Assembly: GCA_051453625.1 (NCBI GenBank)
Contig: JBOZIK010000001.1
Coordinates: forward strand, 49,033,493 to 49,068,725
Reading direction: 5' to 3'
Origin: Welwitschia mirabilis
Lineage: Eukaryota
Length of the DNA: 35,233 bases
The notes under the pieces were generated by a model, which was given only the letters and a program-made list of their open reading frames with translations, had not been told where the DNA came from and made no database searches. The first letter of the stretch is position 1, and each line of letters starts with the position of its first letter. Position numbers and translations under genes: made by a program. Positions 1-31,256 of the stretch are shown here, piece after piece.

Positions 1-2511
1 ATCCAAGATGATTTTGAGGGCTTTTAGAATGTCTAGCAACATTAAGAAGCTTTCTATCATTTAATTTAAGATATGAATTTTCATTTAAAAGATAAGGACT
101 CTTCCAATTAGAATTACCAAATGGCATTTTTTATCCATAATATTTAGTAGCAATATAATAGATAAAAAATTCATATAACTCATGAAAAAATAATCTCTTA
201 TCAAACTCATGATATAAGGAATTTGAAACATATATTTTATGCAAAGCTTAACATTAAACATGGGAGACATTAATGATATTATTGGGGATCTAAGGCTTTG
301 AAAGAAACTTCTTAGGATGATTGATTAAGAAAGGTTTAACACACTTAAGAATCTCCTTAATTTTTAATTCTAAGTATCAAATTTTGGATTAAGAAGATAA
401 GGTTTTCCCTAATTTAGAGTTTTAGGATATCCCAAGTCTTGTTTTTAAAAAGAGTAATCATTAAAAACACAGGGTAAAGTTGATTTTGTAAAATAGGAAG
501 AGATACTACTTTTTGTATCACATGAAGTTTTAAAAAGAAAAGAGTGAGAGATTTTTGGAGTAGACTCCTCAAAGTAATGTGTTTCATTAAATTTAAGAAA
601 ATGAAGAAAATTTCGAGAATTATTTAAATGTTCAAATGGGAGAGAGGGAGAAAGGTTATCATTATCAAGATCACAAGATAATATGAAAGTAGGAGTAGAA
701 GAAGGGATGTCGTTTGAGATTTTTCATGGAAGTACAAGTGAAATTGATGGAAAAACATGTGGAAACTCTTTAAGTTAGTTTATTTCATTAAAAGGTATAA
801 GTCTATCCTCTATTAAGTTTGTTTGATTTTTAATTACTTGTTCTTTATTTCTCTTCTCCTCATTTTTGATGTCATCATTACTTGGTTGAATGCTCTCTTT
901 AATTTCTTTATTATGTTCTTTAGTAATATCTTCCTTTACTTCATTATCTTGATCAATATCATACACTATCTCTTGTTCTTATTTATTCAATTTATTACTA
1001 TTTTGTTAAGGATTATTAATATTTTTTAAGTTAGTGGATTCCTCAAAAATATCATTAAGAAAATCATAGAAAGAAAAGTTCTCGTTATGTGATGGAAGAT
1101 TTTCTAATATTTCTTGATTTAACTCTTCTTTTTCTTTGTTGAATAATTCTATTAGTTCTAAACTATAATCCTCGTTTTCTATTATTAAGTTCTTGTTATG
1201 ACTATTGTCTTGAACTGTATTTGAACAACATGGCTGGATGACTCCCTTCATAATGTAAATTCTTCACTGATTTTATTTCATTACTTAAATTCTCCCTCAA
1301 TCTTATATGTTAAACTTCTTTTAAATGTTGAACTTCTTCATCCTCATTACAAAGTAAGTGAAAACCAGAGATATGATCTAATATTTCAATATACTCATCA
1401 TATTCTTCTTCCTTATCATTTTTATCATCTTTTTGCATGTCATTATTTTCTAGTTTATTAGATTCATCAGAAGGAGAAATGTGATCATTATGTTTATCAT
1501 GGTTTAAAAATTTTTTAGATTTTTCGTGAGTTAATTCTTTTGTTTCATCTTTATTTTTAATAGTAATTAAATGGGATTATAACCTAGCTTATCATTTGAG
1601 AAATAATCATCATCATCCTTATTGTCGAATAATGGAGTTGAATCATTATTGTTTTTCTTTTGTTACCCATCGCCTAATAAGTTTAATGTTATAGGTTAAT
1701 TCATACTTTCATTTTCTATGTTGAAGTAAGAATTATTATTACTTAATATTTCAAAGTTCTCCTCTTGATTTTTAAGGTAGGATGTAGTAGAATAGGTTTG
1801 TGTAAAACAATCTTAAGATTGTTGAATTTGTAATAAATTTTCTTAAAACATTTTAATAAAATTTTCTAAGTTCTTATTAGTATTTTCTTGCTTCATTTTG
1901 ATTTTCTTAAGCATTTTTGTTACTGAGTTATTTCTTCCTTCACAGTAACTTATAGTAGATGGATATTCTTCTTTATGATAATGGATGGGAGATGGTTATT
2001 CTTCATAATAGTTCATGGAAGATGGTTGTTTTTCATAATGACATATTGAAGAGGGTTGGAATTCACTACAATGATTGTAGGATATTTCACTAGATGAGGT
2101 GGAATTCCTAAAATGTTGCAAACTATCATTGTTATTTTTGTTTAAAGTTTAAAAGGAAAGAGGGAAAAAATAAGAAGTTTGAAAAGAGGAAGGAGTTCTA
2201 GTCTCAACATCATTTGAAATTCCCTATAATTGTTCTTGAGATATTTCTCTAAGTGTTTTATTTTCATTATCCTTAGAATTTTCATGTTTCTTCCTCCTTT
2301 CTTTAGCTCTTATTTTAGTCAGTATTTCTCGACGTGGTTTTTTATTATTATTCCTAATAGGAAATGGAAAGGATGAACAAGAAGAATCCTTAGTTTTAAG
2401 TTCTAGATCATCATTAATAGATAAGTTATAAGATTTTTTTCTTTCACATCTCCTTCTAGCAGTTATCTCTTCCGTAGTGATGTTTGCATTTGAACTAGAG
2501 GGTTTTATCAT
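1..2511 (-). pseudogene. Decayed ORF region of family A copy 1 (gag-position ORF, low complexity, function unknown)
   Basis: Minus-strand ORF fragments 2224-2511, 1006-1251 and 775-966 are colinear pieces. The homologous pieces in copy 2 include 14310-14564. An in-frame 30-nt repeat is present, with many stops and frameshifts. Confidence 0.55.
1952..2078 (-). repeat. 30-bp degenerate tandem repeat, ~4 units (encodes ~MSHYEEQPSS on - strand)
   Basis: Units like ATGGAAGATGGTTGTTTTTCATAATGACAT. The array in copy 2 (~14602-14758) has 5 units. Confidence 0.8.
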
Positions 2512-3219
2512 GTTTGTATTAAGTAATACTACTTATTAATAAGAAGGAGATAAAATACTTGTTCTCATATTCTATCATTTTCACTACTACTATTTGAAAG
2601 ATTTGGTTCTAAAATAACAAAAGCAAAAAAAAAAAAAAAAACTTTAAATCTTGGAAATTACATACTTTGGATGTGCATACCTATATTTTATTTTTCATCA
2701 AGTAAGCCTTTTTTGATATTTTTTAAGTAAGCTTCATTCCCTTAGATATTTTAGCTTTTTACTAGATTTTATCATGTGCTTGCATGCTTAGTAAGATATG
2801 TATCTATTTATCACCTTATTCGTAGTCTGGATGATATTCTAAATGACTGAAAAACAAAAAACAAAAAATAAAATCGCTGAAAACCAAAATAAAAACCTTC
2901 TGTCAATCGTCTTCCTGTGCTATCCAGATGACAGAGTAGACGATATCGACTTATTACATAGTAAAAAATTTAAAACAAACCTATAGAACAAAATAACAGA
3001 AGACTTAACCCTATGTTAACATCCGCATATGTTATCTAGACGATAGATAGGACTACAAATTTAAAAAATTTGGAATAAAAAATAAAAAATGAGAAATAAT
3101 GCAAAAAGTAAAATTACGATATTTAATAGTAAAAATATAATACTATCATAAATAAATACCTAAATCAAAATCCAAAGCACTTATCTAGGTAACACTAATC
3201 CTTAAACTCCTTGTAGCCT

Positions 3220-3237
3220 TCCCCAGCAATGGCACCA
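3220..3237 (-). other. Primer-binding site complementary to tRNA-Asp
   Basis: TCCCCAGCAATGGCACCA versus plant tRNA-Asp 3' end TCCCCGGCAACGGCGCCA is 15/18, with all three differences CpG transitions. It lies 3 nt from the LTR end. A tRNA-Asp PBS is characteristic of the Athila clade. Confidence 0.9.
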
Positions 3238-3240
3238 AAA

Positions 3241-3897
3241 TGTTGTGATGTGTATTTATGCAAGCATTACGTTCTTAGTTAAATCCTATTAATCATAAAT
3301 ATATGCAAAAACACAACACATTAATATAGATGAGAGTGGATCTGAATGTCAAAATCTGTTGAAGGAACTAGATGAGAAAAAGAGAATTACTTTGAATAAA
3401 GTAAAGGTTTAAACTTAAAATCAATAATGTAAGAAAAGTAAACACACAATGCAAATGCAAAATGAAAACTACTCTAAATGCAATATCTATCTGACTACTA
3501 AATCCTTATCACCAAGATCGGCCCTATATAACCTAGATCAATCGAGGAAACTATTACTAACCAAACCCAACCTATGCTATTAAGTACATCAAACAGATTA
3601 TGGAAAATATGAAATGATTAATCTATGAAATAAAAAATGCAATTCAAGCCTTAAACTAATTTTTTCAATCTTAATAAAGGTTTCTTTTGATAACCTATAT
3701 CACAAATGAAGCTATCACAGAATCATAAGAAACATAAACCATAAGGGACATGCACATGAATATGAATAAAAATAAAAAAAGATTTTCATTAAAAGTCAAA
3801 TCAACATCTTATTACAAAGCAGAAATACCTTAATAAAGGAGACACATTCCAATACTAATAAAGGTTCCTTTCTACAACTAATGGATGGACCTCCTGC
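3241..3897 (-). repeat. 5' LTR of family A copy 1 (cut by assembly gap)
   Basis: Homologous to 8515-~9165 and 15859-~16510; begins TGTTGTGATG on +. Confidence 0.9.
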
Positions 3898-3997
3898 NNN
3901 NNNNNNNNNNNNNNNNNNNNNNNNNNNNNNNNNNNNNNNNNNNNNNNNNNNNNNNNNNNNNNNNNNNNNNNNNNNNNNNNNNNNNNNNNNNNNNNNN
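3898..3997. other. Assembly gap (100 N)
   Basis: Run of exactly 100 N; the sequences on either side are unrelated. Confidence 0.99.
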
Positions 3998-5177
3998 CCA
4001 GTCTGGGTATTACTCTAAGCTCTTAGGAATTTGCTTTGCATTTCTCAAAGCCCTAGACCTAGGGCTCTAGGTGAATTTACCTTTCTTTTTGTTAGGCCCT
4101 TTAATAGAGAGACTTCTCTAGACATTCGGAATTAGTTCTATTATCTTAGCGAGCAACCAATGAGATCACAATAAGAGAGGCCTCTTATCCTCCTCTACGA
4201 TGATATCCACATTAGACTCTACCAAGGAGAGCTCCTAAGAGAAAAGCCATCATGAAAGGAACCCCTTAATCTGAGGGGAATATTACATAAGATAGCTCTA
4301 GTCAGTAGGGGATGACTCCATCCCTAGACCACATAGAGGAGATGAATTCATCCCTAGACCATCAGGAGACAACTTAGAAGACCATTTAAGAGACATCTAA
4401 GGAGCAAGTTTAGGAACATCCATCATCCAACTCCCAGGAGTAAGGGAGGCATGTCTAGGCCTTCCCTCAATAAGAAAGGAACCCCAATTCTACCTAGAAT
4501 TCAACCATAGACTCTTCTTCAGCAGAAACATAGTATAACTCTTAAGAGGTTATAGATATGAATGCTACAAGATGGAAAGTTATGTTTGCAATAATTCATG
4601 GACTAAANNNNNNNNNNTATGCCCCGTTGCCCCATTAGAAATCTTCCACAAATTCCTCCCTCAAGCCATCAAGTCCACCTATAGAAAAAAAGTTCTTAGG
4701 CTACATCAAAATAAAAATAAAGTAGGTGCTAAAGAATTCAAAGAGGTAAATCAGGCCTTTAAGGTGCTATCTGATGAAATGAATAGTTTTTAACTTAAAC
4801 ATAACCACTGTAATCTTTTTCCTTTTTGTAGAGAATACTAATCCTTTTCTTTTTATGTCTTTTCTCTAGTCTAAGTTAAGTTTTCTTAAGTCTGATATAT
4901 TGAGGTGGTTTTAATCCTAGTTAATTAGTTAGTAGTATTTCTCAGTGGTTATTGCATAATAATATTTTAGATAGTTAGTTTCCCATCTTTAGTCTATTTT
5001 CCTAGGGGAACTTTCACCCCCAATTTTGTTCTGTTTCTAGTTTATTCTTGAACCTTCAATGGCATGTTTCCTTCTTCTTTAAACAATTTAAACTTCCCAT
5101 TAATTTAGGGTGTTATTGCCCTCACCAATGTAAATTTTGTAGTTTAATATAATTTTCTCTTTTATCAAAAAAAAAAA
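3998..5177 (+). mobile_element. Poly(A)-tailed non-LTR retro-insertion (L1-like 3' end or LINE-mobilised retrocopy), 5' end lost in gap
   Basis: A decayed ORF stops at 4793, followed by a ~370-nt T-rich 3' UTR ending AATATAATTTTCTCTTTTATC-A11 (5167-5177). The A run joins directly into the middle of a family B LTR at AAAAG|TAATAAC. Confidence 0.7.
4618..4793 (+). pseudogene. DnaJ/Hsp40 J-domain remnant (HPD motif decayed to HQN)
   Basis: PQAIKSTYRKKVLRLHQNKNKVGAKEFKEVNQAFKVLSDE fits the J-domain consensus IKKAYRKLALKxHPDKN...A.E.FKEINEAYEVLSD. Confidence 0.8.
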
Positions 5178-5929
5178 GTAATAACATGCCTTAGTCAATC
5201 CTAAGCATAACAAGTATGAAATTAATCATAACTTAATATCAAAGTAATAAACTAAGAAAAGAACAAATAACACTTTATTATCAAAGGAGTAAAAGTATAC
5301 AATCCATGAAAAGTACTCATCTTAATTCATGAAGCATCATGCTAGCTTATAAGCTAGCCCCTCCCTAATGAAAAGATTAGAAAGAACACATGACTAAAGC
5401 TCCATTAATCTATTATACAATATGACGAATTCTAGCTGACTTCAAGTAAAGTAGGGTATTTATAGGCCTAAATTAAGGTTTTTAGTTAGGATTTCTAAGG
5501 CCTAATGAGATTTTTTTAGAACTCCAAAAGTGTACAGGGTCATCCTTTAATCATGGGGTCAATTTGAGGATTCTTCTAAGAAAATATTCTTCATTAATCA
5601 TCTACTTTCAGAAATGTTCTAAATGGATTACTTTTATTGATAAGATTCAGAAATGTAAGTATGGACTTATTATGCATATAAAAAGCAGTGTTGCTACTCT
5701 TGAAACTAGTGCCACTACCAATAATACTTGACACACCTATATCTTCTGTCATAATACTCCAAATGATGTAAATGTCCTACAAAATAATTGTGTTAAGGTA
5801 GATTATTAGTAAAACTATATTTTCGTAGCCTTAAGCATAATAAATGCATAAAATCATCATAATAATCAATTGAGAATGCTAAAAAGCCCTATATTCCTTA
5901 ATATAAATGTTAATTTTTATGTCTTATCA
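5174..5929 (-). repeat. Family B LTR (partial, inverted relative to 21034-21786)
   Basis: Its reverse complement aligns colinearly with 21034-~21786. The minus-strand start TGATAAGAC at 5929 matches TGATAATAC at 21034. No PPT precedes it, so it is a 5' or solo LTR. Confidence 0.82.
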
Positions 5930-7069
5930 ATGGTCAATGGTGAAAGCAATAGTAGATTCAAGCAAAGATTAATAAATATAATGATAAGAACATAGATCCT
6001 ACATAAGATGGAAGTAAAATATAAAAATGAGTTTGAGTTTTCTAAGTAAAAAAAAGTAGGAAAATGGTAAAAATAATAAATATAGATGAAGATGTATGAA
6101 GAATATCAACTACTTTACCTTATATACTGACTTAGCTAGATGCATTAGTATTCATCGTAGAACTAATATTAAATATATATGATTAAGTGCTTAATAACAA
6201 TAAGCATCATGTAACAAGAATAATGATTATAAGAACATCAAATGATTCTTATATAAAGTATTAAGTTTATTTCAGTAGAATCAATTCAATTATTTTCTAA
6301 AGAAACAATGAAATTTTGCTAATGTATCATCCATTGATCAATATATTTTATCATGATCTTAAAGTCATGGCTCAAAAATTATGGGAAATAACATTAATAA
6401 AATCTTAAAGAATACCATTCATCATGACGAGGGGAGTGTAACCACTATTAAAAAGTAAGTACCTATAAGTCAAAGCTAGATTATGGCTAGATAACTCTCT
6501 AATGTAGTTCCCATAGCTGTCATATGATATTACAAAAGGATCCTTTTGAGAAAATTTACCCCAAAATGCTTGTAGTAGGATATCATGGAAGTAATAAGAG
6601 TAATGTTAGTGATGATGATTATTATTATTATTTCATCTCTCTAAACTGAGACATTATTTTTTTATAAATTAACCTATATTCCCTTTTTGAAACATTGGTT
6701 GATCCTTAGAATAATATATTAACTAACTACAAAGTTGCAAACCAACATTTGATTTGACATAATTAATACTTAAATAAAATTATCATAAAGATTAAAGTTT
6801 ATAGTTATGAAAATGTCTTAAATTGGCTAAAATCCAATATCGATCCTTTTTAAATACTCTAAAGTAAAAAAATAATTTTTATCAAGACTCATATAAAATT
6901 TAACCTAAAATCAATTGCATAGATAACTAAACAGTAAGATGAATTAACCAAGGAATCTGACTAGGAAACTATTTCAACTAGTAAAGGGAAGATATTCTTC
7001 TTAAGTAAGAGGATCATCTAAGTCATTTTCATTAATCATATCCATGACATAATAATCATCATTAGGTGA

Positions 7070-8514
7070 TTGATATAACCTCAACTTTTATCCATTTACC
7101 TTTACATAAGTGTTTAAGTCGAAAATACCAACAGAGTGATTAAGATGTACTTGTTCTATAAGATAAGGGCTTAGCCATTAGAAGTCAATTTGTCATGAAT
7201 TATGTACACTTTAATATTAAACAACAATACCAATTATCCTACTTGAAATATTTAGTAATAATAGTGTTAACATGGTAAAATTTCTCTTAAGCTTTTTTTA
7301 GATGAGTTATCTATGAACAACATGATTTTATTTCTCATCAAAATGTTAATGTTAGACTAGTCTATGTTAAATATTCTCATTAAAATAGATACCATTGATT
7401 TGATGGATTATTCTATGGAAATTATAGCATACACTAATAAGAAGAACACATGTTTTATCATACAGAATTTCACGAGGTGAAAAACCAAGTGAATTATGTC
7501 AAGTAGTATAGTAATACTAAAGCACATCATGAAGTTTCAAAGACAAAGACTTCTTATTTCAAAAGATAAGTTTTTAAAGCATTTTTTAATTTTCTTATTA
7601 GAATTCTCAATTTGGTAATTAATTAATAAATGCTAAGCATTAGTTATTCTATGTCCAATTCTAACAAAATGAGAAGTTTTCTAACAAGATTATTTATAAA
7701 ATGAGTACATTGGTAACTAATCAAGATCATAGAAATAAAAACCCATGATAAATATTATATCTAAGGAAAGAACATATATTTTTTATTTTTTACAATTATA
7801 GAAATAGATTCTACCTATTTCATTTCATAATCCATAACCAACTAAAATATAATTCTTATTAGAAGAAGATGGTATAAAAGGGTCTATGAAGTCTATAGCC
7901 TAAGAATAAAAAGGTTCACACTCTAAGATAGTTGGAGGGATATGTATTAAGATTAGAAAGGCTGCCAAATCATTATCAAGCATTAAATTTTCTAGTAAAG
8001 TTGAATGAATCCTTAAATAGGATAAACCAATAGAATTTAACATGTAGGATTTTCATAGAATTCTTTTGAGCACTAAATGACCTCTCCATACATCATGATG
8101 AAAAGAGTAAGAACATCATATTATTTTCATTTGGCATACTGTTGTGGTGTGTTTTTATGCAAATGTTACATCCTTATTTAAATCTTATCAATCATAAATA
8201 TATGAAGAATCACAACACACTAGTATAGTCAGGGATATGTATTAAGATTTAATACATCATGAATTCTATAGCCTAACAATCAAAAGGTTCACACTCTAAG
8301 ATAGTTGGAGGGACATGTATTAAGATTTAAAAAGGCTACCAAATCATTGACAGGCATTAAATTTTCTAGTAAAGTTGAATGAATCCTTAAATAGGATAAA
8401 CCAATAGAATTTGGCATGTAGGATTTTCATAGAATTCTTTTAAGCACTAAATGACCTCTCCATACATCATGATGAAAAGAGTAAGAACATCATATTATTT
8501 TTATTATGGCACAC
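7070..8514 (-). pseudogene. Decayed Ty3/gypsy (Athila-type) integrase
   Basis: Frameshifted translation gives the HHCC region (KILHVKFYWFILFKD), core-domain pieces (AIDFIDPF, YILV, THFINN, LGFSPREILYDKTC) and the C-terminal GPY/F region (PYLIEQVH..VGIFDLN..VKVNG.KLRLY). Interrupted by the LTR at 8515; includes the duplicated 7886-8231 segment. Confidence 0.85.
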
Positions 8515-8606
8515 TGTTGGGATGTGTATTTATGCAAATGTTACATCCTTAGTTAAATCTTGTCAATCATAAATATATGAATAATCACAACATACTAATA
8601 TAGTCA
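7886..8606. repeat. ~346-bp direct duplication spanning the integrase/LTR junction, with a 27-bp filler
   Basis: 7886-8231 matches 8259-8606. Each unit includes the first ~92 bp of LTR A (8140-8231 and 8515-8606). The filler is 8232-8258. Confidence 0.9.
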
Positions 8607-9729
8607 AGAGTGGACCCAAATGTTGTAATTTATCGAAGGCACTAAGCAAGAAGAAAGAGAATTTATCTTCATGAAGTAAAGATTCAAAATGATAATCAAT
8701 AATGCAAGAAAAGTAAACACATTATGCAAATGTAAATGTTATCTACTCTAAATGCAATATCTATCTGACTACCAAATCTCTGTAACAAGATTGGCCGTGT
8801 ATAACCTAGATCAATTAAGAAAATTATTACTAATTTTAACCAACTTAAGTTATCAAATGCATCAAGTAGAATATGAAAAACATGCAAAGTTAAATCTAAG
8901 AAATATAAATGCAATACAAGATCTTAAAATAATGATTTCAACCTTAACAAAGATTGCTCTTGATGACCTATATCACAGATGAAGTTATCACGGAATCATG
9001 AGCAACATAAATCATAAGGGACATGCACATGACTATAAAACTAAAAGAAGATTTCCATTAAAAATCAAACCAATAGCCTGTTATAAAGTAGCAGCACCTT
9101 AATGAAGAAGACATAACCCAATACCAAGGAAGACCCCTCTTTGCAACTAATGAATGGACCTCTGGCTCTTCGATCTCCTATTCGAGAATTTCTAGTGCAA
9201 TGAAGATGATCAGAATTGAGGATGAAGATGGTATTTATTGATAACAACAAAATTTAATAATAGAAAATCTAATAGACACACGAAAATCCTAATGTCCACA
9301 GAAAGCACATGACATATTAAATAAGTTAGGTAAAGTTTGATACATTAACTAAAATGAGATTGTTGTCCCAGTTATTATCTGAACGATGGTGGGAATGATG
9401 CCATGTCAAGAGAGTTCTATATTTAACCTTAATATTGGTCCACTTAGCATCCTAGTGTCATCCTAATATGTCAACCAGATAATGGAGAGGATAATAGACC
9501 TTTTAAAGCTCTTTATCAAGTTAAATTGACCTTAAAGATCATTAATTCCTCCTCAAATATAAAGTGTCAGAATTAGTCTAAAATGCCTTCAAAGGTATTA
9601 GTATTTGTGTATTTCTGTGATTTTTTCCTTGACTCTTAATAATTATCATTTTGTACTTAAACATTTCTAAATGTCTTGCGAAACTACTCAAAATACCCTA
9701 TCAAAAACATACAATTTGCCATCACAACA
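8515..9729 (-). repeat. 3' LTR of family A copy 2 (1215 bp)
   Basis: TGTTGGGATG...CATCACAACA termini (9/10 inverted repeat). Abuts the PPT and is homologous to 15859-17091. Confidence 0.92.
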
Positions 9730-9730
9730 T

Positions 9731-9742
9731 CGCCCCCCACTT
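9731..9742 (-). other. Polypurine tract
   Basis: Minus strand AAGTGGGGGGCG immediately before the LTR TG. Confidence 0.85.
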
Positions 9743-11643
9743 AGCCTTATTAGCTCCTGACAAAGTTGGTGAACAACTATAATTGCAAGCCACATTGACT
9801 TAGATAAAACACTATTTAGAGATATGTAAATCAAGTTCATACATCTCAGCATGTTCGAATAAATCATAAAATTAAATAATCTAAAATGTTTCACCTTAGT
9901 AGTGGTATCATCTAGATTATCATCCAGATGATTAGCCCCCCACTTAAAAAATTTAGCACATCCAAAGGATAGAAATTGAATGTCATAATAAAAATAATCA
10001 TCATAAGATATGATCATAATAACTTAGATAAATAATGTGCATATATAATTAGAAAAATTAATAACTCAAAAAGAATATTCATAGATTAAACATTGAGTTT
10101 ATAAGCATAATATATAAGGAAAATATGTCAAAAATAATCAATCATGATATTACTCCCTTCATCCACAGTCTTATGAATTACTTTGATCATTTGTGTGAGA
10201 AAAACATACTACAAGTATTCTGCTATTAAGTACATGTTTTACTAGACATTATCCAGAATGTATATCACTCAAATAATACACATTCAAAATTAGATTAGTA
10301 CATGACATATATGTCTCATGAAAATGTAAAAATGACCTTCAAAAATTTAAAATTTATTCAATATATCTCAAAATATATATCTTGATTTCCCCACAAGTGA
10401 ATCAATACATCCCATATTGCATTAATGTAAGAAGGAAAAAGATGGAAATGCAAGTTTAAATACAAGTAAGCAAAATAGTAAGACTAGAATTAGTATTCTA
10501 TGCATGAAAGGAAGGTCTAAAAAATAGTTTGAAAAAGATGAAAGATAAATAGTTAATGCTTAGAAAATATTTGTGTGTCATTTACCTAGTTATCTGGATG
10601 ACAATGAGAATGACAAGGTTTTTCAAAAGATCATAAATTTTGGAATGATTAATAGAATTAGTTAAGCTCAGATAGCATTAAGTAGGTTTTAGAAAGGTAT
10701 AAGAGAGTCTGAAATATGGGAAATTACTAAGAATCATGATAAATCAAGGCATGATAAAGGAGGTGAATGCACCAAGCTAAGGAAGATAAATGAAATATGC
10801 CATGAACTCATAATCATTGGAAAATAGTACTGGATCCATCAAAACTCAAAAAAGAAAATTAAAGAAAAATAAACTTAAAAAGATTCAAAAGAATATATGG
10901 GAAAAATTAGCATCATAAACTAAAGAAGTTTAGATGTAAAAATAAAATCAAATTTTATAAATAAAAGTGACAAAAAGAAATAAAATCAAAAAGAGAACTA
11001 CTAAATTATTAAGTCCTAAAAACTTGTAATGAAAAAGTACAAAAATAACTTTGAAATATCAAAGAAAACAACTAAGGAAAACAAAACGGAAATAGACAAC
11101 TTAGGAACATGAAGAAAATTGTATACCTATCCTAAATTCAAACCTAGCAAATGCTCTTAAAAGTAGTTATAAAATCACCTAATTAATATTGCATAAGATA
11201 ATGAAAAAACTTTATAAAGTACCACTTGAATAAGTAGTGATTACGATGATGCTAAGTAACTAATGTTTTCAAACAATAAATCCTAAGATCAAAAGCTACT
11301 AGAAATGAACTTACATATTAACACCCTAAAACACACCCAAACCCTCATGATTATGTAAGAATACTGTAAGCACAATGAGTCGAGGAAATAAGAAATGCCT
11401 CTAATGATATTAGAAACACCATCAATCTTATAGCCTTAAAGTATTTTATTTTAATTTATGATCAAGGGAGTGTAATCATAATTAGTGAAGTAGAAACCCA
11501 TGAAGCATGACTAACTAACCCCCTAGTGGAGTTTCTGTAGCCTCCAACACTATCAAAGGTCCCTCTTGGAACAATTTACTTGGTGTAGTAGGACATCATG
11601 ATGATCATGTATTTAGCATAGAAATAATAGATCATGGTTATTA

Positions 11644-11685: not shown

Positions 11686-14601
11686 TTTTTTTTTCTTTTC
11701 TTTCTTTTCTTTTTTTCCACATACTTCTTGAAAATAAATCCCATGTGACCACACATTCATAAATATGAAGGTGAAGAAATAAGATAAAAGACAAGAAAGA
11801 ACACCCCCAACAATCAAAGACTTACATCATTGAGAGAAAACACAAAAAATCAAAGCATATTCCTTCTAATGAAGTTCATAGGCATTTGAATTTATTAAGA
11901 TTGGATGAATCCAATCTTATCACTTGAATGTCTAAGTAAAAATTACTAGTCATGGTGACTTCATAAAGTAAAACCTAAGTCAAGTTTAAAATATGTTCAA
12001 GTGATAGCAAGATGTCCAACAAAAGAATAAGCTAAGAAAGAATTTAGATAATGATAGGATAACTTTTAGAACAATTGCTTCCAATATGTTCAAGATTTGA
12101 TGATTTATGGATTTTTAATTCTTATCTATTTTTCTAAATTTCCCTAGTGTTCAAATCGAAAATTTTAACTAAGCCATTGAAAATGTACTTTCTCTAAAGG
12201 ATAAGGACCTAACCATCTAGAGATTGATTTATTACTTAAAATAAAAACCAAAGAAAAAAGCATAAAAACATAAGAATAAAAAGGAAAAACCCAGGTAAAC
12301 TAAAAACAAGTTTTATTCAAATCCTAAATTCTATTTAACACTTTTATTAAAAAAGAAAAGAAAAGGAAAGATTTACTCTTAAGGTTATAGTCCTAGGATA
12401 TTGCATTCTCTTAGAGAAATAAGAACCAAATCAAATATTCATCAATTAGTAAGAGATATAATATACACAATCATTTTTCAGTAAAATTAATTAGATATAA
12501 AAATAATAAAAGGATACAACTTTGATAAAACAAATTTTAGATTCTAAAGAAGAGATAGATAAGTGATAAATCTCATTGAAGAATAATCTCTTATTGAAAC
12601 GATGTAAATCATGAATATCATCATATAATTCATGCAAACAAGAACTCAAAGAAAGTACTCAAGAATATTTTGAGGCTTTTTAAAATGTTCAGTAAGATTA
12701 AGAATCTTTCTATCATTCAATTCAAGACATAATTATTCAATAAAGAAATAAGGCCCTTTCCAATTAGCATGACTAAGTGGCATTTTATCTTTACAAGATT
12801 TAGTAGCAATATAAGAGATAAAAAATTCATATAACTCATGAAAAAATCATCTCTTATTAAACTCATGATGTAAAGAGTTTGAAATATATATTTCATTCAA
12901 AGCTTAATATTAAACATGAAATATATTAAGAATCCAAGGCTTTGGAAAAAAACTTCTTGGGGAGAGTGATTAAAATAGGTTTAATATACTTAAAAAGCTC
13001 TTTAACATTTAATTCTAAGCATGAGTTTGGATAAAGAAGATAATGTTTGCTCCAATTTAGAGTTCCAAGATATCCCAAGTCTTATTTTCGAAAAAATTAG
13101 TCATTAAAAGCACAAGGTATAGTTGGTATAGTTAACTTTGTAAAAGACAAAAAGATGTTACTTTTTGTAGGACACAAAGTTCTAAAAGGAAAAAGTTAAG
13201 AGATTTTTAAAGTATACTCCTCAAAGTGATGTGTTTCATTAAATTCAAGCAGAGTAATAGAATTTTGAGAATTTAAATGTTCAAATGGGAGAGATGGCAA
13301 AAGGTTATCATTATCAAGATCAAAAGATAATTTGGAAGTAGAAGTAGAATGAGGGATATCATTTGAGGATTTGCATGGAAGTATAAGTGAAAGAAATGGA
13401 GAAACATGTGGAGACTCTTTAAATTGGTTTATTTCAATAAAAGGTATAAGTCTATTCTCTATTACATTTGTTTAATTTTCAATTACTTCTTCTTTATTTC
13501 TCTTATCCTCATTGTTGATTTTATCATTACTTGGTTGAATGCTCTCTTTACTTCATTATGTTCTTTGATAATATCTTCTTCTTCTTCATTATCTTTATTA
13601 ATATCATTGACTATATCTTACTCGTTTTTATTAAACTTATTATTATTTTGTTGAGAATTTTTTTCATTTTATAAGTTGTGGGTTCCTTAAGAATATCATT
13701 AAAAATATCATGGAAAGAAAATTTCTCATTATGTAATGGAAGATTTTTTTAATATTTCCTAAGTTGGTTCTTCTTTCTGTTTGTTGAATAATTCTATTAA
13801 TTCTAAACTATAATCCTCATGTTTAGTTACTGTGTTATTATTATTGACTATTGTCTTACATTTTTGTCTGGATAACATGGGTGGATAACTTCCTTCATAA
13901 TGTAAATTATTTACTGATTTTATTTCATTACTTAAATTCTCTTCAATCTTACATGCTAAACTTCTTTTAAAGGCTTAACTCCTTCATCCTCATCACAAAG
14001 TAAGTGAAAACTAGAGATATGATCTAATATTTTAATATAATCATCATCATCTTATTTCTCACCATTTTTATCATCTTATTGCATGTCATTATTTTCTAAT
14101 TCATTAGATTCATTAGAAGGTGAAATTTGATCATTATATTTATTATGGTTTAAAGAATTTTTAAATTTTTCATGAATTAATTCTTTTTTTTCATCTTTAT
14201 TTTCTAATAGGAATTGAATGGGGTTATAACCTAGCTCATCATCTAAGAAATAATCATTTTCATTTTTATTGTAGAATAATGGAGTTGACTCATTATTGTT
14301 TTTATTTTATTATGCATCTCCTAATAAGTTTGATGTTGTAGGTTTATCCATACTTTCACTTTCTATGTTGAAGCAAGAATTATTGTTACTTATTATTTCA
14401 AAGTTCTCCTCATGTTTCTCAAAGTGGAATGTAGCAGGATAGGTTTGTTGTGTAACAGAACCTTGAGATTTTTGAATTTGTAATAAATTTTTTTGAAACA
14501 TTTCAATTAAATTTTCTAAGTTCTTATTGGTATGTTCTTGTCTTATTTTCATTTTCTTAAGCATTTCTGTTACTAAGTTATTTCCTTATTCATAGTAACT
14601 T

Positions 14602-14758
14602 ATGGTAGATGGATCTTCTTCTTCATAATAATCTATGGAAGATGGTTGTTCTTTATAATAACTCATGGAAGATGGTTATTTTTCATAATGACTCATGAGA
14701 TATGGTTGTTCTTCATAATGACTCATGGAAGATGGTTGGAATTCATTGAAATGATTGT
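14602..14758 (-). repeat. 30-bp tandem repeat, 5 units, in family A ORF
   Basis: ATGGAAGATGGTTGTTCTTCATAATGACTC-like units. Confidence 0.85.
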
Positions 14759-15837
14759 AACATATTTCACTAAATGAGGTGAAATCCCTAAAATGTTGCA
14801 AATCATCATTGTCATCTTCATTTAAATTTTAAAAAGAAGGAGAAAAAAATAAGAAGTTTGAAAAAGGAAGGATTCATAGTCTTAACCTCATTTGAAGTTC
14901 CTCAAAATTGTTCTTAAATATTTTTCTAAGTGTTTTATTTCCATTATTCTTAAAATTTGGATGTTTTCTCCTCCTTTCTTTAGCTCTCATTTCAATCAAA
15001 TTTTATCATTATTTTTAGTAGTAAATGAGAAGATCATTATTAGAAGATAAGATATAAGAATTTTATCTTTTACATCTCATTTTAATAATTATCTCTTCTA
15101 TAGTAACCTTTGCATTTAAATTAGAGGGTTATATCATGTTTACATTAAGTGATGCTACTTATTAATAAGAAGGAATAAAATGAATTTTCTCCTATTATAT
15201 TATTTTCACTTCTACTATTGAAAAATTTAGTTCTAGAATCATAAAAGCTAAAAAGTTTTCTTCAAATCTTAAAAATTACATACCTAGGATGTGCATATCT
15301 GTATCTTATTTTTTCTCGAGTAAGCCTTTTTTGATATTTTTTTGAGTAAGCTTTATTCCCTTAGATATTTTAGCTTTTCACTAGATTTTATCATGTCCAT
15401 GCATGCTCAGTAAAATATTTATCTATTTGTTATCTCCTTCATTGTCTAGAAATATCCTAGACAACTAGAAAATAAAGAAAATAGAAAATACAATAGCTAA
15501 AAACTATAATAGAAACCTATTATGAGTTATTTTCTTATGCCATCTGGATGATAGAGTAGATAATATCAACTTATTACACAATGGAAAATCAAAAACCTAT
15601 GGAAAAAATAATTAAAAAACCCTAATCCTAGGTCATCATCTGCCTATGTCATTGGGATGACAAACAAGACGACAGGCTTGAAAAATGCAGAACAAAAAAT
15701 AAAAAATACATGAAAAAACGTGGAAATAAAAATTATGATATTTATAGTAAAAATACAATGCTAACGTGAACAAATATCTAAATTAAAATCTAAAGCACTT
15801 ATCTGGGTAATGACAATTCTCGAACTCCTTGTAGCCT

Positions 15838-15855
15838 TCCTCAGTAATGGTGCTA
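15838..15855 (-). other. Decayed tRNA-Asp primer-binding site
   Basis: TCCTCAGTAATGGTGCTA matches the tRNA-Asp 3' end at 12/18; all differences are C>T or G>A. Confidence 0.8.
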
Positions 15856-15858
15856 AGA

Positions 15859-17091
15859 TGTTACAGTGTGTATTTATGCAAATATTACATTCTTAGTCAA
15901 ATCCTATCAATCACAAATATATGCACAAACATAATACTCTAATATAAATGGGAGTGGATTCAAATCTCATAATCTGTTAAAGACACTAGGCAAGAAGAAA
16001 GAGAATTACTTTTTATGAAGTAAAGGTTTAAAATGAAAATAAAAAATGCAAGAAAAGTAAATACATTATGCAAATGTAAATTCAATCTACTCCAAATGCA
16101 ATATCTATCTGACTACCATATCATTGTTACAAGATCAGCCCTATATAACCTATATTAATTAAAGAAACTATTTCTAACCCCAACCAGGCTAAGCTATTAA
16201 GTGCATTAAATAGAATATGGCAAACATGCAAAGTTTAGTTTAGGAAATATCAAATGCAATGCAAGATCCTAAACTAATAGTTTCAACCTTAATAAAGGTT
16301 GCCCTTGATGACCTATCATAGATAACGCTGTCACAGAGTCGTAAGCCATATAAACCATAAGGCACATGTACATGAATATAATAAAACTAAAAGAAGATTT
16401 TCATTAAAAGTTAAACCAATAACCTGTTATAAAGAAACAGCATCTTAATAAAGGGGACATAGTCTAACACTAAGGAAGACCCCTCTCTGCAACTAATGGA
16501 TGGACCTCTAACCCTTCAATCTCCTGTCACAAGAATTTTTGGTGCAACAAATATGATTAGAGTTAAGAGCAAAGACAATATTTATTGATAACAACAGACT
16601 CTAACAATAGCAAATATAACAGATGCATTGAAATCCTAATGGAACATAGAAAGCACATAACATATTGCATAAGTTAGGTAAAGAATGATAAATTAACTAA
16701 AACTAGATTATTATCCCAATTATCATCTAGAAGATGATGGGGACAATGCCACATTAAGAGAGTTTTATATTTAGCTTTCATATTGGTTCAGTTAGCCTCT
16801 GTCAGCATGTAAGTGGTGTCATCTTAGTATTTCATTTGGATGAGGGAGGGGACAACAACCTTCTTAAATCTCTTCAATCAAGTTAATTTAACTTCATAGA
16901 ACATTAATTCCTCCTTAAAATTTGAAGTATTAGAATTAATACAAAATACCTCCAAAAGTATTGGTATTTATGCATTTTCATGATTTTCTCCTTGACTCTC
17001 AATAATTATTGTTTTATTTTTAAACCTATCTAAATGTCTTATAAAATTACTCAAAATAAATCTTCAAAACGTATAATTTGGCATCACAATA
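15859..17091 (-). repeat. 5' LTR of family A copy 2
   Basis: TGTTACAGTG...CATCACAATA; colinear with 8515-9729. Confidence 0.9.
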
Positions 17092-18659: not shown

Positions 18660-21033
18660 TTTCATTTAATTTCTATTAAACCCATGATTTTTTAGCTCAA
18701 TTGCATTAATCACTTATGTTTTTTGCAATTCTCATGTTGTTGTACTCTATCTTACCTTATCTCGACCTATGCATCCATGTTTTACTAGCATTATTGCCTA
18801 CCCTCACTAGTGTCATTATTCTTTTGGAACTAGGTACCTTTGTCTTTTAATTACAACTTTTTTATAGGATCCTCTAGTTTCTCAGTGCATTGGGGAGCCT
18901 GTTCTTAAATCTAAACTCCTTATATTTACTTTCCAACCCATTTTTCACTTTTATAACTTCTTCATTCATATCTATTTCATTTACATTTATTTTTCTTTCT
19001 TTAATTCTATTATTTCAAGCCATAATAAGTGGAAGATCGAAACCATTTTTAAAAGAAGAAATTTTTACATCCTTCCTCGCCATTTATGCATCTTCATATC
19101 TTACTAAGGTTGAGGCAAAAAAATTAGAACTACTTGTTAAGGAAGAAGACATCTACTACTTTCCCAAGGGAGTTTTGGAGTTCTTCAGAAATGCTATAAT
19201 AGATGAAGATGACCCTTTGGTAATTCATTCTTCAATTAATCACATTTATTTTGTTGTTTCATTTAGTAATGTAAAAGAATTAATAAGAGTTAAACGTTAT
19301 GATAATTTACCTTACATGCTCATAAAATCCCTTAGTTTTTATTATGCTACACTCCACGTACAATGTGAATCAAATAGGAAAGGATTCCACCCTTGTAAAT
19401 ACCTTTAAAAGAATAAATTAGTACTTTTTAGACTTATAATCCCTAATGTCTTACCTACATAACATGTGATGGATGCTTACAATAATCATCATGATATGAT
19501 TAGAACAATTCACATAATAAGGCCTTTGATATTTTTAAATGTCTTTTTACCATCATAGTAAATAATATTGACTATAGGAGTAATCTTTTCTTCCTAGGAT
19601 TAGTTTTAGATCGATTTATAATGCCTTGTCTTACACTTTAGATTTTGAAGGATGGGATATAACCTTCATAGAAATCGTCAACCCTAAGAAGATTACCAAC
19701 TTAGTAAGTGTAAAAGAAAAAATTGGATTTCAAGAGGTCTTTATGAGATTCAAGAAGAATAATTACCTCTCAAAAAATTCATTTCTACTTCTCAAGCCCT
19801 TTCTTCTTTTTATTTTTCATACACTACAAGAATAAAGGAGGAAGCATTCATAGGTTAATCTTCTCATGCCCCTTCTTTTCCATTATTTTTTGATCCTCCT
19901 TTCATAACTCACCATCATTCTTATGATATCATTTTGGAGGAAGTACTCAAATTAGAAAGGACTTAAATTAGAAATCTTTGGAAAAAAAGAAGAAGATTGC
20001 TAAGTAATAAAAAACAAATTCAAGGAAGTAAGAGGAAATGGTTTAGATGTTGGAACAGATTGCCTCTTATAGAAGACTCACGAGCCAAATTCTCCCTTTC
20101 TTTCTCTTTCTCTTCACCATTCTTTACCTACATTTTTTTTCCTTTTTTGTAGCTACATTGTAATAGAATTTTCTCTTATTTTAATGAATTTTGTACTTAA
20201 TGTAAAATGCATGTTGAATTCCTACCTTTGCCAATATAGTCTTTATTCTAAACTGATACATAATTACTAACATTCTAATTTAGTATTTAGTCTTTGTAAT
20301 GAAACCCTCATAGCATAATTCTTAACAAAGCTAATGGAACCACCTTTCCTAGCCGACACCACTACTTATTCTACATAAAATGATCTTTGTTGGGCTAAAA
20401 TATCCCATATTTCATTTCTAGTGTTTCAAGACTTGGATCTGCATTAAAAATTCATAAAAACTGATTGATACAAACTCATCATCCATTTCTTCATTTCTAA
20501 ACCATTACATTTCATTCTTCATTCATTTTTTTTCTTTGTTTTTTGATTATTTTTGTAGTTTATATTTCACATCAAAGACTTATGTCATTACAATCAAAGA
20601 GTCACTTTAATTAAAAGTTTTTCTTTTGCATGAGTTTGCATTTTCCAATTTTTAGTTTCATCATGCATTGCATGTTTTATTTTCATAATTTTCCTTTTAG
20701 TTCATTTTTCATTGCAGTAGAACATGAATTATTCAATCCTCATTGTAGAACATGAATTATTCAATCCTCATTACTTTTCCACTCAATTTTTCATATCTTT
20801 TAAACGTTATGGATAAAGTTTAGATTTGGTTAGGGGGAATGGCATGTGTGATGAAGTACTTATCTTTAATGCTTTATTCTTTTACTAAAGTGTAATTTCA
20901 TATTAAATTAGTTAAATTTTGCAAAGTCACTTATTATTTCTTGATTGATTTACTTTGTAATTTTTTTAATGTTACTTAAGCTTTGACACACCATTTTTTA
21001 CTAAGGTACTATCAAAAGATTGGTTAGAGGGTA
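18660..21033 (+). mobile_element. 3' internal region of family B LTR retrotransposon (decayed antisense ORF ~18660-19940, T-rich 3' UTR, PPT-like tract)
   Basis: GGTTAGAGGGTA lies directly before the LTR TG at 21034, with a second G-tract TAGGGGGA at 20831-20838. The left boundary is uncertain. Confidence 0.5.
20717..20772. repeat. Perfect 28-bp tandem duplication
   Basis: GTAGAACATGAATTATTCAATCCTCATT x2. Confidence 0.95.
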
Positions 21034-22233
21034 TGATAATACACAAAATTAACATTTACATCAACAAATCTGGACCTTGTTAGCATGTTTAATTGATCAT
21101 TATGATGCTTTTATGCATTTATTATGCTAAAGGTCATAAGAATTAGTTTTACTAATAATCTTCCTTAACACTATCTTTTTGAGGGAGATTTACATCATCT
21201 AGAGCATTGTGGTAGAGAATGGAGGTATGCTAAGCATTATTGGCAAGGGCATCAGTTCTAGGAATAAGGGCATTGGTTATTATGTTTAGAAGAGATTCAT
21301 ACTTACATTCTTAAGCCTTCTTAACACAAGCAATTCATTTGAGGCATTACTAAAAGAAGATGATAAACAAATAATATTTTATAAGAAAAACCCCTCAAAT
21401 TGATCCCATGACTAAAGGATAACTAGGTGTACTTTAGGCATTCTAAGGAACGACCCCATTAGATCTTGATAACCCTAATTAAAACTTTAATTCAGTTTAT
21501 AAATACCTTCCTTCACTTCACTTGAAATCATCTTTGATCATATTATGTAAGAGATTATTAAAGATTTACTCATGTGCTTTTCTAATCCTTACATTAGGGA
21601 TGGGCTATCTTTCAACCTAGCATGATGCTTCTTAAATTAGCATGAGTACTTTTTATAGATTATGTGCTTTTACTTCTCTGAAATAAAGTGTTACATGTTT
21701 TTTTCTTAATGCATTACTCTAATACTAAGTGGTGATTATTTCGTAGTTGGTATGCTTAGGATTGGCTACAACATGTTATTACTTTTAGATTTCATGTGTG
21801 ATTCTCCTTTTTACTCTAGATTTCATAATTTGAATATTAATTTGATGGATCTTACAAAAATTGTATTTTTTATGCTTATCATATTCTTATTGTGAAGGTT
21901 AGGTGGGTTGGAGACATCACCCTCATATCTATTGTGGATGATATTATGTCACTGTGCTTGAGCTAGAACCACATGAGCCTCATGTCTATGGTGGATGAAC
22001 TATAGTACTATGCTTGAGCTAGGGTAAAATCTATATGAATTTAATAAAATATTTATTCTTTCATTGTATTCATTATACTAGTATTAATGCTATGCCCCAT
22101 TCCTAGTTCTTTACATATTTTAGCCACTACATCCATTTTTATTATGCTTGCTTTAATTAATAGTTTACTACATCTATCCTCATAAAAGAATGACATTGGA
22201 ATAGCACTACAAAATAAAGTCCTAGTTTTATTG
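21034..22233 (+). repeat. Family B 3' LTR (~1.2 kb; right end approximate)
   Basis: Starts TGATAA after the PPT-like tract and is homologous to 5174-5929. It contains an internal ~57-bp imperfect duplication at 21921-22022. The right end is inferred from where P450-like sequence begins. Confidence 0.7.
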
Positions 22234-31033: not shown

Positions 31034-31256
31034 AATAGATTAGATCTGATATTGATATAGGGTATAAGGACCACCCTAGATAGCAAGAAGTTAGTAAAAT
31101 TAGTTAAGTTTATTGCATTGAGGTCACTTTCATTTTCATTGCATGTAATAGATTAGATCTGATTTTGATATAGGATATAAAGGTCAAATTGGATAATAAT
31201 TAGTTAGTAAAATCAATTAAGTTTATTTCATTAAGGTCACTTTCATTTTTGTTGCA
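31034..31256. repeat. 113-bp-period imperfect tandem duplication in LTR C
   Basis: AATAGATTAGATCTGAT...GGTCACTTTCATTTT..TTGCA starts at 31034 and again at 31147. Confidence 0.9.

Follow-up and report, generated by a model that had tools for sequence, protein, structure and literature searches.

The window analysed here, a 35,233-nucleotide stretch of Welwitschia mirabilis DNA (contig JBOZIK010000001.1, positions 49,033,493 to 49,068,725), is AT-rich, with a GC content of approximately 25–32% per kb, and gene-like content is absent from it. Positions 3998–5177 stand out by a GC content of 36%, relative to 26% in the surroundings. On the plus strand, this stretch comprises an upstream part (3998–4607), a remnant of a DnaJ-type J-domain (4644–4778), a TAA stop codon (4791–4793), a T-rich 3′ region (4794–5166), and a run of eleven adenines (5167–5177) that leads into a fragment of another repeat, here called family B (5174–5929, plus strand). 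Two assembly gaps are present. The first, of 100 N (3898–3997), bounds the stretch on its left and conceals the 5′ end of the element as well as any 5′ target-site duplication, and the second, of 10 N (4608–4617), splits it. In another family copy, the sequences on either side of the smaller gap run together, as one contig (X5 record 18, from one of the DNA runs described below) bridges 4475–4740, including the 10-N gap, with 8 gap positions. Self-comparison of the window revealed neither a second copy of 3998–5177 nor any related sequence. Additionally, no tandem repeats were detected in 3900–5300, an Rfam scan of 3600–5600 returned no matches at E ≤ 1, and a tRNA scan of the window was negative.

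The context to the left of the 100-N gap, outside the element, is a plus-strand copy of a different repeat, family A (4–3893), with 79.5% identity to 12660–16508. Family A is old and at least 4.4 kb in length, and is represented in the window by three partial copies (4–3893, 12660–17089, and 8523–9727) with approximately 78–80% identity, the last of which matches 15867–17089. No Pfam domain was detected in its ORFs. Within the examined 3700–5700 region, summed contig depth peaks in the family A bin at 3700–3766 (68,434 in run X1), and family A thus seems to rank among the most abundant repeats in the genome. The window also contains two local tandem duplications (7886–8231 relative to 8259–8606, 93% identity; 31034–31143 relative to 31147–31256, 83% identity).

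The most distinctive feature of the stretch is its similarity to J-domains. The translation of 4620–4790 matches the Pfam DnaJ profile (PF00226) with 35.7 bits, above the gathering cut-off of 27.8 (E 9.4e-9), over profile positions 9–56 of 63, and the 84-residue ORF that contains it scores 34.2 bits. Among the 103 stop-to-stop ORFs of at least 50 residues in the whole window, this is the sole match at or above a Pfam gathering cut-off; three further matches are below threshold (E 0.002–0.006). The J-like stretch IKSTYRKKVLRLHQNKNKVGAKEFKEVNQAFKVLSDE quoted in an earlier note on this DNA is present letter for letter in frame 4620. Similarly, in a phmmer search of the PDB the best match is the J-domain of Caenorhabditis elegans dnj-12 (2och_A, E 2.8e-8), aligned without gaps over 39 residues. 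The identification of J-domain helices II–III in that note is thus borne out, as is its placement of a stop at 4793 and its expectation of a PF00226 match, and the similarity is more than chance.

The match is nevertheless partial. It covers approximately 45 residues, corresponding to helices II–III, whereas helix I (profile positions 1–8) and helix IV (57–63) are unmatched. The His-Pro-Asp motif between helices II and III is conserved among J-domains and is needed to stimulate the Hsp70 ATPase. Aligned under the HPD of 2och_A and 2lo1_A, the element reads His-Gln-Asn (codons at 4704–4712). A single-sequence AlphaFold2 model of the J piece (pLDDT 69) has helices at residues 6–9, 15–32, and 36–55, and a Foldseek search of the PDB with this model found no match at E ≤ 0.001. 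Because the Pfam score is reached but the HPD motif is lost, the feature is best named, on sequence grounds, a J-domain remnant and not a J-protein.

Searches for relatives of the 57-residue J piece returned distant matches. Word-index searches for longer proteins and for proteins of similar length that contain it found none. A HMMER scan of 1.84 billion representative proteins gave eight matches at E ≤ 1e-3 (best 2.8e-6), which are 33–51% identical and appear by eye to be ordinary J-proteins; neither a close relative nor a parental DnaJ gene was found in this set. When the eight matches were compared with 3998–5177 by tblastn, the J stretch alone aligned. A loose resemblance, judged by eye, of the region preceding the J core to the N-terminal helix found in plant J-proteins of the DUF3444 type had no tblastn support and was discarded. 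A scan of metagenome contigs reduced 520 pattern matches to a single confirmed locus, L001, which aligns over 23 residues at 61% identity and is taken for an unrelated J-protein. One of the eight matches, a predicted protein of 349 residues (P0006), consists of at least five tandem, degenerate units of J helices II–III with YPD for HPD, and is an independent case of J-domain fragments multiplied in some genome. In the literature searched, no description of a transposon-encoded or transposon-borne J-domain was found.

The upstream part appears in many copies and is non-coding in every frame. Its three forward frames contain 14, 9, and 22 stops, relative to 12.5 expected from composition. The earlier note had read a single order of blocks here, from a hydrophobic segment through a Gln/Glu/Ser/Thr-rich linker into the J-domain helices. 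All of the quoted strings are present; however, they do not share a frame, as the hydrophobic block is in frame 3999, and the linker and RWKVMFAIIHGL fall in frame 4000. Only with the 10-N gap counted at its stated length does the J piece share frame 3999. The 8 gap positions in X5 record 18 would instead bring frame 4000 into phase with the J piece, tentatively with a start at 4558. It is also correct that the linker stops are all TAG or TAA (9 of 9 between 4375 and 4543), and among the 40 of 727 variant rows listed for other copies there is no majority difference on these stops, which the earlier note proposed to be mutated Gln codons. Because frame 4000 is the one with 22 stops, in excess both of the expected 12.5 and of the other two forward frames, the linker frame does not look, from its composition, like a decayed ORF. 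Pfam scans of the six read-through frames of 3998–4607 and 4618–5177 detected nothing besides DnaJ, and in particular no reverse transcriptase, endonuclease, RNase H, zf-RVT, or zinc-knuckle domain. A segment of approximately 120 bp within the upstream part (4088–4209, plus strand) is missing from several other family copies, with contig joints from 4087/4090 to 4207/4210 in nine X1 and three X3 contigs, and the minimum of the X1 depth profile falls in the bin at 4102–4168.

To what extent the stretch is repeated elsewhere was assessed with contigs of three DNA runs (X1, X3, and X5, from three studies and under two organism labels), which were aligned to 3700–5700 with a minimum likeness of 80%; unassembled reads from an oligo-dT RNA run (X16) were aligned to the same region. 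Coverage extends to 29 of 30 bins in every DNA run, the N gap being the empty one. Every bin of 3998–5177 contains many distinct contigs at 80–99% likeness in all three runs. In X1, the summed contig depth across the stretch ranges from 127.5 (4102–4168) to 10,684.9 (4705–4771), and the profiles of X3 and X5 are similar. By comparison, an X1 contig corresponding to this very locus (record 8, 5472–5700, 1 mismatch in 229) has a depth of 7.5. Summed depth is not equivalent to copy number, and a firmer measure is the number of distinct contigs that carry a letter other than that of the window. By this measure, each listed site (40 of 727 rows) has 3–120 variant contigs per run. In X1 these number 120 at 4033, 61 at both 4454 and 4550, 113 at 4719, 67 at 4962, and 59 at 5139, and across 3998–4607 they number 11–120 per listed site. 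Pieces from other copies also link the parts of the stretch to one another (4388–4604, 4475–4740, 4633–4884, 4657–4880, and 4793–5067, the last spanned by X3 record 9). The stretch 3998–5177 is therefore one copy from a dispersed family of repeats that occurs both in the source genome and in another organism related to it.

Within the family, the J core (4638–4838) forms the deepest block, at 3–29 times the adjoining bins (4,215–10,685 in X1, relative to 254–775 for most flanking bins). This peak could mean either past constraint on a J ORF or membership of the J core in another, more abundant family. There is no steady rise in depth toward the 3′ end, and among the pieces listed none crosses 5067–5175 and none reveals a further copy that terminates at this poly(A). 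At 4792, A is replaced by T in 49, 33, and 45 contigs of X1, X3, and X5, respectively, which constitute the majority of the depth. Since most copies thus carry another letter within the TAA codon, this stop is private to the window copy or its subfamily, and the ORF may extend further in other copies. At the HQN codons (4704–4712), the 40 of 727 variant rows listed contain no majority difference.

The RNA data do not indicate expression of the window copy, as 24 of 11,053,536 records from X16 aligned and none did so at 90% likeness or more. Separately, the segment at 4973–5039 exceeds the adjoining bins in depth (1,729 in X1), and four RNA reads align as far as 5037 before passing into one common unrelated sequence (agreement 0.98). 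Since these reads run on into a shared foreign sequence, a related segment is evidently transcribed elsewhere in the genome. That the stretch is a live terminal exon of a gene for a J-like protein is the least credible of the readings considered. As assembled, an open stretch of 84 codons (4539–4790) does contain the J piece, but a live exon is contradicted by the loss of the HPD motif, by the multi-copy state, and by the lack of any RNA read at 90% likeness or more, and CpG is also depleted (1 observed relative to 5.5 expected in 4618–4793).

The 3′ portion of the stretch has the appearance of a transcript end. The 373 bases downstream of the stop contain 47% T, resemble a 3′ UTR, and are common to other copies at least as far as 5139. 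They are followed, after TTTATC, by the eleven adenines, and the tail that the earlier note reported is thus in place. The window contains two runs of at least 11 A, relative to 0.32 expected under an iid model; the only other one is a run of 17 A at 2625–2641, within the family A copy. The A-run fits the remnant of a poly(A) tail. It is joined to a fragment of family B that has 75% identity to a second copy in the window (21786–21034, minus strand) and that is cut internally by the 3′ end of the element. Homology between the two copies begins at AAAAG, and the second copy reads CT|AAAAG, as had been claimed for the uninterrupted copy; approximately seven of the adenines of the element are in excess of the AAAA present there.

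Contigs from other loci indicate that family B does not normally begin at this point. In 387, 396, and 264 contigs of X1, X3, and X5, respectively, family B matches from 5175 on and the sequence upstream differs from the window. These upstream sequences are similar to one another, and they agree with the second family B copy of the window at 18 of 30 ungapped positions, as judged by eye. Because both the contigs and the second copy continue upstream, family B normally runs past 5175 and the junction is internal to it. The copy in the window is interrupted there by the A-run of the element. As far as the available text of PMC2848041 describes them, LINEs, SINEs, and Sadhu retroposons insert with a thymine before the nick and a duplication that begins with adenines, and the T|AAAAG site matches this pattern. 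An A-rich 3′ tail joined at a T|A-rich nick site is the arrangement that characterises a LINE-type retroposon, and the 3′ junction is consistent with target-primed insertion of the LINE type.

Other aspects of the locus are less simple. A LINE-mobilised insert would be flanked by a target-site duplication of 7–20 bp; a 12-base candidate for such a duplication has no copy with two or fewer mismatches between 3446 and 5173. Since self-comparison indicates that family A does not resume beyond family B, the locus is not a clean nested insertion, and either it is more complex than this or it is mis-joined at the 100-N gap. At the far end of family B, both copies share sequence to approximately 5930 (ending in TTATCA) and diverge thereafter (compared over 5925–5935 and 21030–21040). 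From this divergence, position 5930 looks like the true end of family B and would be compatible with an LTR terminus. The occurrence of TTATCA both at the end of the element and at the far end of family B was judged to be due to chance, as the 3′ regions are otherwise dissimilar.

Origin as a single processed pseudogene from a class A-like or class C DnaJ gene of the host could account for the T|AAAA site, the adenine tail with the UTR-like region before it, and a GC content above that of the surroundings. A processed pseudogene of this kind would be present in single or low copy, whereas all of 3998–5177 is repeated in each of the three DNA runs, with 3–120 variant contigs at each listed site, and the one-off origin offered by the earlier note is therefore contradicted. 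Additionally, coding similarity is confined to the approximately 45 residues of the J piece, with no further J-protein sequence on either side. This origin is accordingly very improbable.

In our estimation, with a probability of roughly 55%, the stretch belongs to a family of non-autonomous or 5′-truncated poly(A) retroposons that is mobilised in trans by LINEs and contains a degenerate DnaJ fragment of host origin. In such a scenario, a Pol II transcript that included a piece of a host DnaJ gene would have served as template, either for a non-autonomous poly(A) retroposon or for the 3′ portion of a LINE. The endonuclease and reverse transcriptase of a LINE may then have amplified this template in trans by target-primed reverse transcription, and silencing and the decay of copies would have followed. 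We infer mobilisation by LINE machinery and capture from a host gene in this reconstruction, in which the J piece is most likely captured cargo, presumably devoid of function, and not a working co-chaperone.

The main rival to a LINE-mobilised retroposon, possible although on balance doubtful, assigns the J core to a different class of transposon (the LTR or internal region of an LTR retrotransposon, a Helitron, a MULE, or a CACTA element) that captured a DnaJ fragment, and treats the A-run and the family B junction as secondary, the latter having arisen from a nested insertion, a deletion, or mis-scaffolding. The patchiness of the X1 depth (127–10,685), with hot blocks at 4035–4101, 4638–4838, and 4973–5039, suggests a mosaic of abundant families and is in keeping with this origin, as are the failure of family A to resume after family B and the location of two assembly gaps in or beside the element. 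Precedents also exist, as gene-fragment capture is described as common among plant transposons in the portion of bioRxiv 10.1101/777037 consulted, and the relevant section of PMC3852528 lists 18 DNAJ-like sequences in a sunflower repeat database, without further analysis. However, approximately seven extra adenines at a T|AAAA junction are not explained by cut-and-paste transposition or by an LTR end. Similarly, the 370 bases before the A-run are T-rich and 3′-UTR-like, no tandem repeats are present in 3900–5300, and the window holds no second copy or related sequence, all of which count against a transposon of another class.

A further alternative, which is unlikely, is an autonomous LINE or poly(A) retroelement whose last ORF encodes a J-protein that recruits Hsp70, with the window copy 5′-truncated and decayed. 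Several features would suit such an element: the J core is the deepest block, as expected under constraint, it directly precedes the UTR-like tail and the adenine run, the stop at 4791 is absent from most copies, and the target site is LINE-like. A more specific form, to which we attach slightly less credence still, sees in the J core the conserved central coding region of an undescribed poly(A) retroelement lineage, in which a J-domain or J-like protein of active members would engage Hsp70 for RNP assembly, and takes the window to preserve an old, 5′-truncated copy with a decayed HPD and reading frame. Against a J-protein-encoding element, the motif reads HQN, with no majority difference there in the variant rows listed, and helices I and IV are not recognisable. 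No remnant of a reverse transcriptase, RNase H, or zf-RVT domain occurs in 540 upstream bases, although the adjoining J remnant is still detectable, and the in-phase upstream frame is the one with 22 stops. Moreover, 1.84 billion representative proteins yielded only ordinary J-proteins at 33–51% identity, and the terms DnaJ and J-domain do not occur in the searched main text of three surveys of retrotransposon accessory domains and L1 elements (PMC7264820, PMC5203782, and PMC6338049). The lack of a reverse transcriptase and endonuclease applies to the window copy, which is possibly 5′-truncated, and does not settle the matter for the family.

The proposal in the earlier note of a LINE or LINE-dependent family with its own Hsp70 co-chaperone is thus upheld in part. 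A multi-copy family with a LINE-like 3′ junction is present; the co-chaperone ORF is not supported, given HQN for HPD, the restriction to helices II–III, an upstream part that is not ORF-like, and the lack of a close relative. As it stands, the retroposon would be another instance of a host gene fragment passively multiplied by a repeat, which is useful for annotation and leaves knowledge of retroelements unchanged. J-like fragments, at some 900 or more in each genome, would give rise to spurious DnaJ gene calls, and could also be a source of small RNAs that partly resemble genuine J-protein genes. If young members with an open, HPD-bearing J frame and with endonuclease and reverse transcriptase did exist, they would constitute the first transposon known to carry its own Hsp70 co-chaperone.

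In behaviour, the closest parallels to the element are retroposons of the Sadhu type and the many plant repeats in which pieces of host genes are carried. Relative to Hsp40/DnaJ proteins, the J piece resembles the J-domain of dnj-12 (2och_A) in helices II–III, with approximately 49% identity over the 39 ungapped residues and a loop of class A length, but it differs in having HQN, in lacking a match to helices I and IV, and in the absence of G/F, zinc-finger, and C-terminal domains. Among retroposons, the Sadhu elements of Arabidopsis, to the extent that the accessible part of PMC2848041 covers them, are similar in their length of approximately 1 kb or more, the lack of their own coding capacity, a poly(A)-type 3′ end, a T before the nick with an A-run after it, a moderate copy number, and their presence in related species; the 5′ end and any target-site duplication of the present element fall at the 100-N gap. 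The likeness considered is one of features, a relationship in sequence not being expected, and relative to the Sadhu copies described in that part of the paper, the present element differs in carrying a fragment of a host protein and in a J core that seems far more abundant. Plant L1 LINEs, as portrayed in the searched text of PMC5203782, share the poly(A) 3′ end, the A-rich target, and copy numbers in the tens to thousands. In contrast to them, the element contains no remnant of APE, reverse transcriptase, RNase H, zf-CCHC, RRM, or DUF4283 domains, and that text does not name a J-domain among the domains of L1 ORFs. The element thus has LINE-type features at its 3′ end and none of the coding features of a LINE.

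Pack-MULEs and Helitrons are transposon families that contain captured host gene fragments. A J-domain as the captured piece was not found described in the literature searched. What the present element has in common with these families, as well as with LINE retrocopies and 3′ transduction, is a short, presumably non-functional piece of a cellular gene that has been amplified passively.
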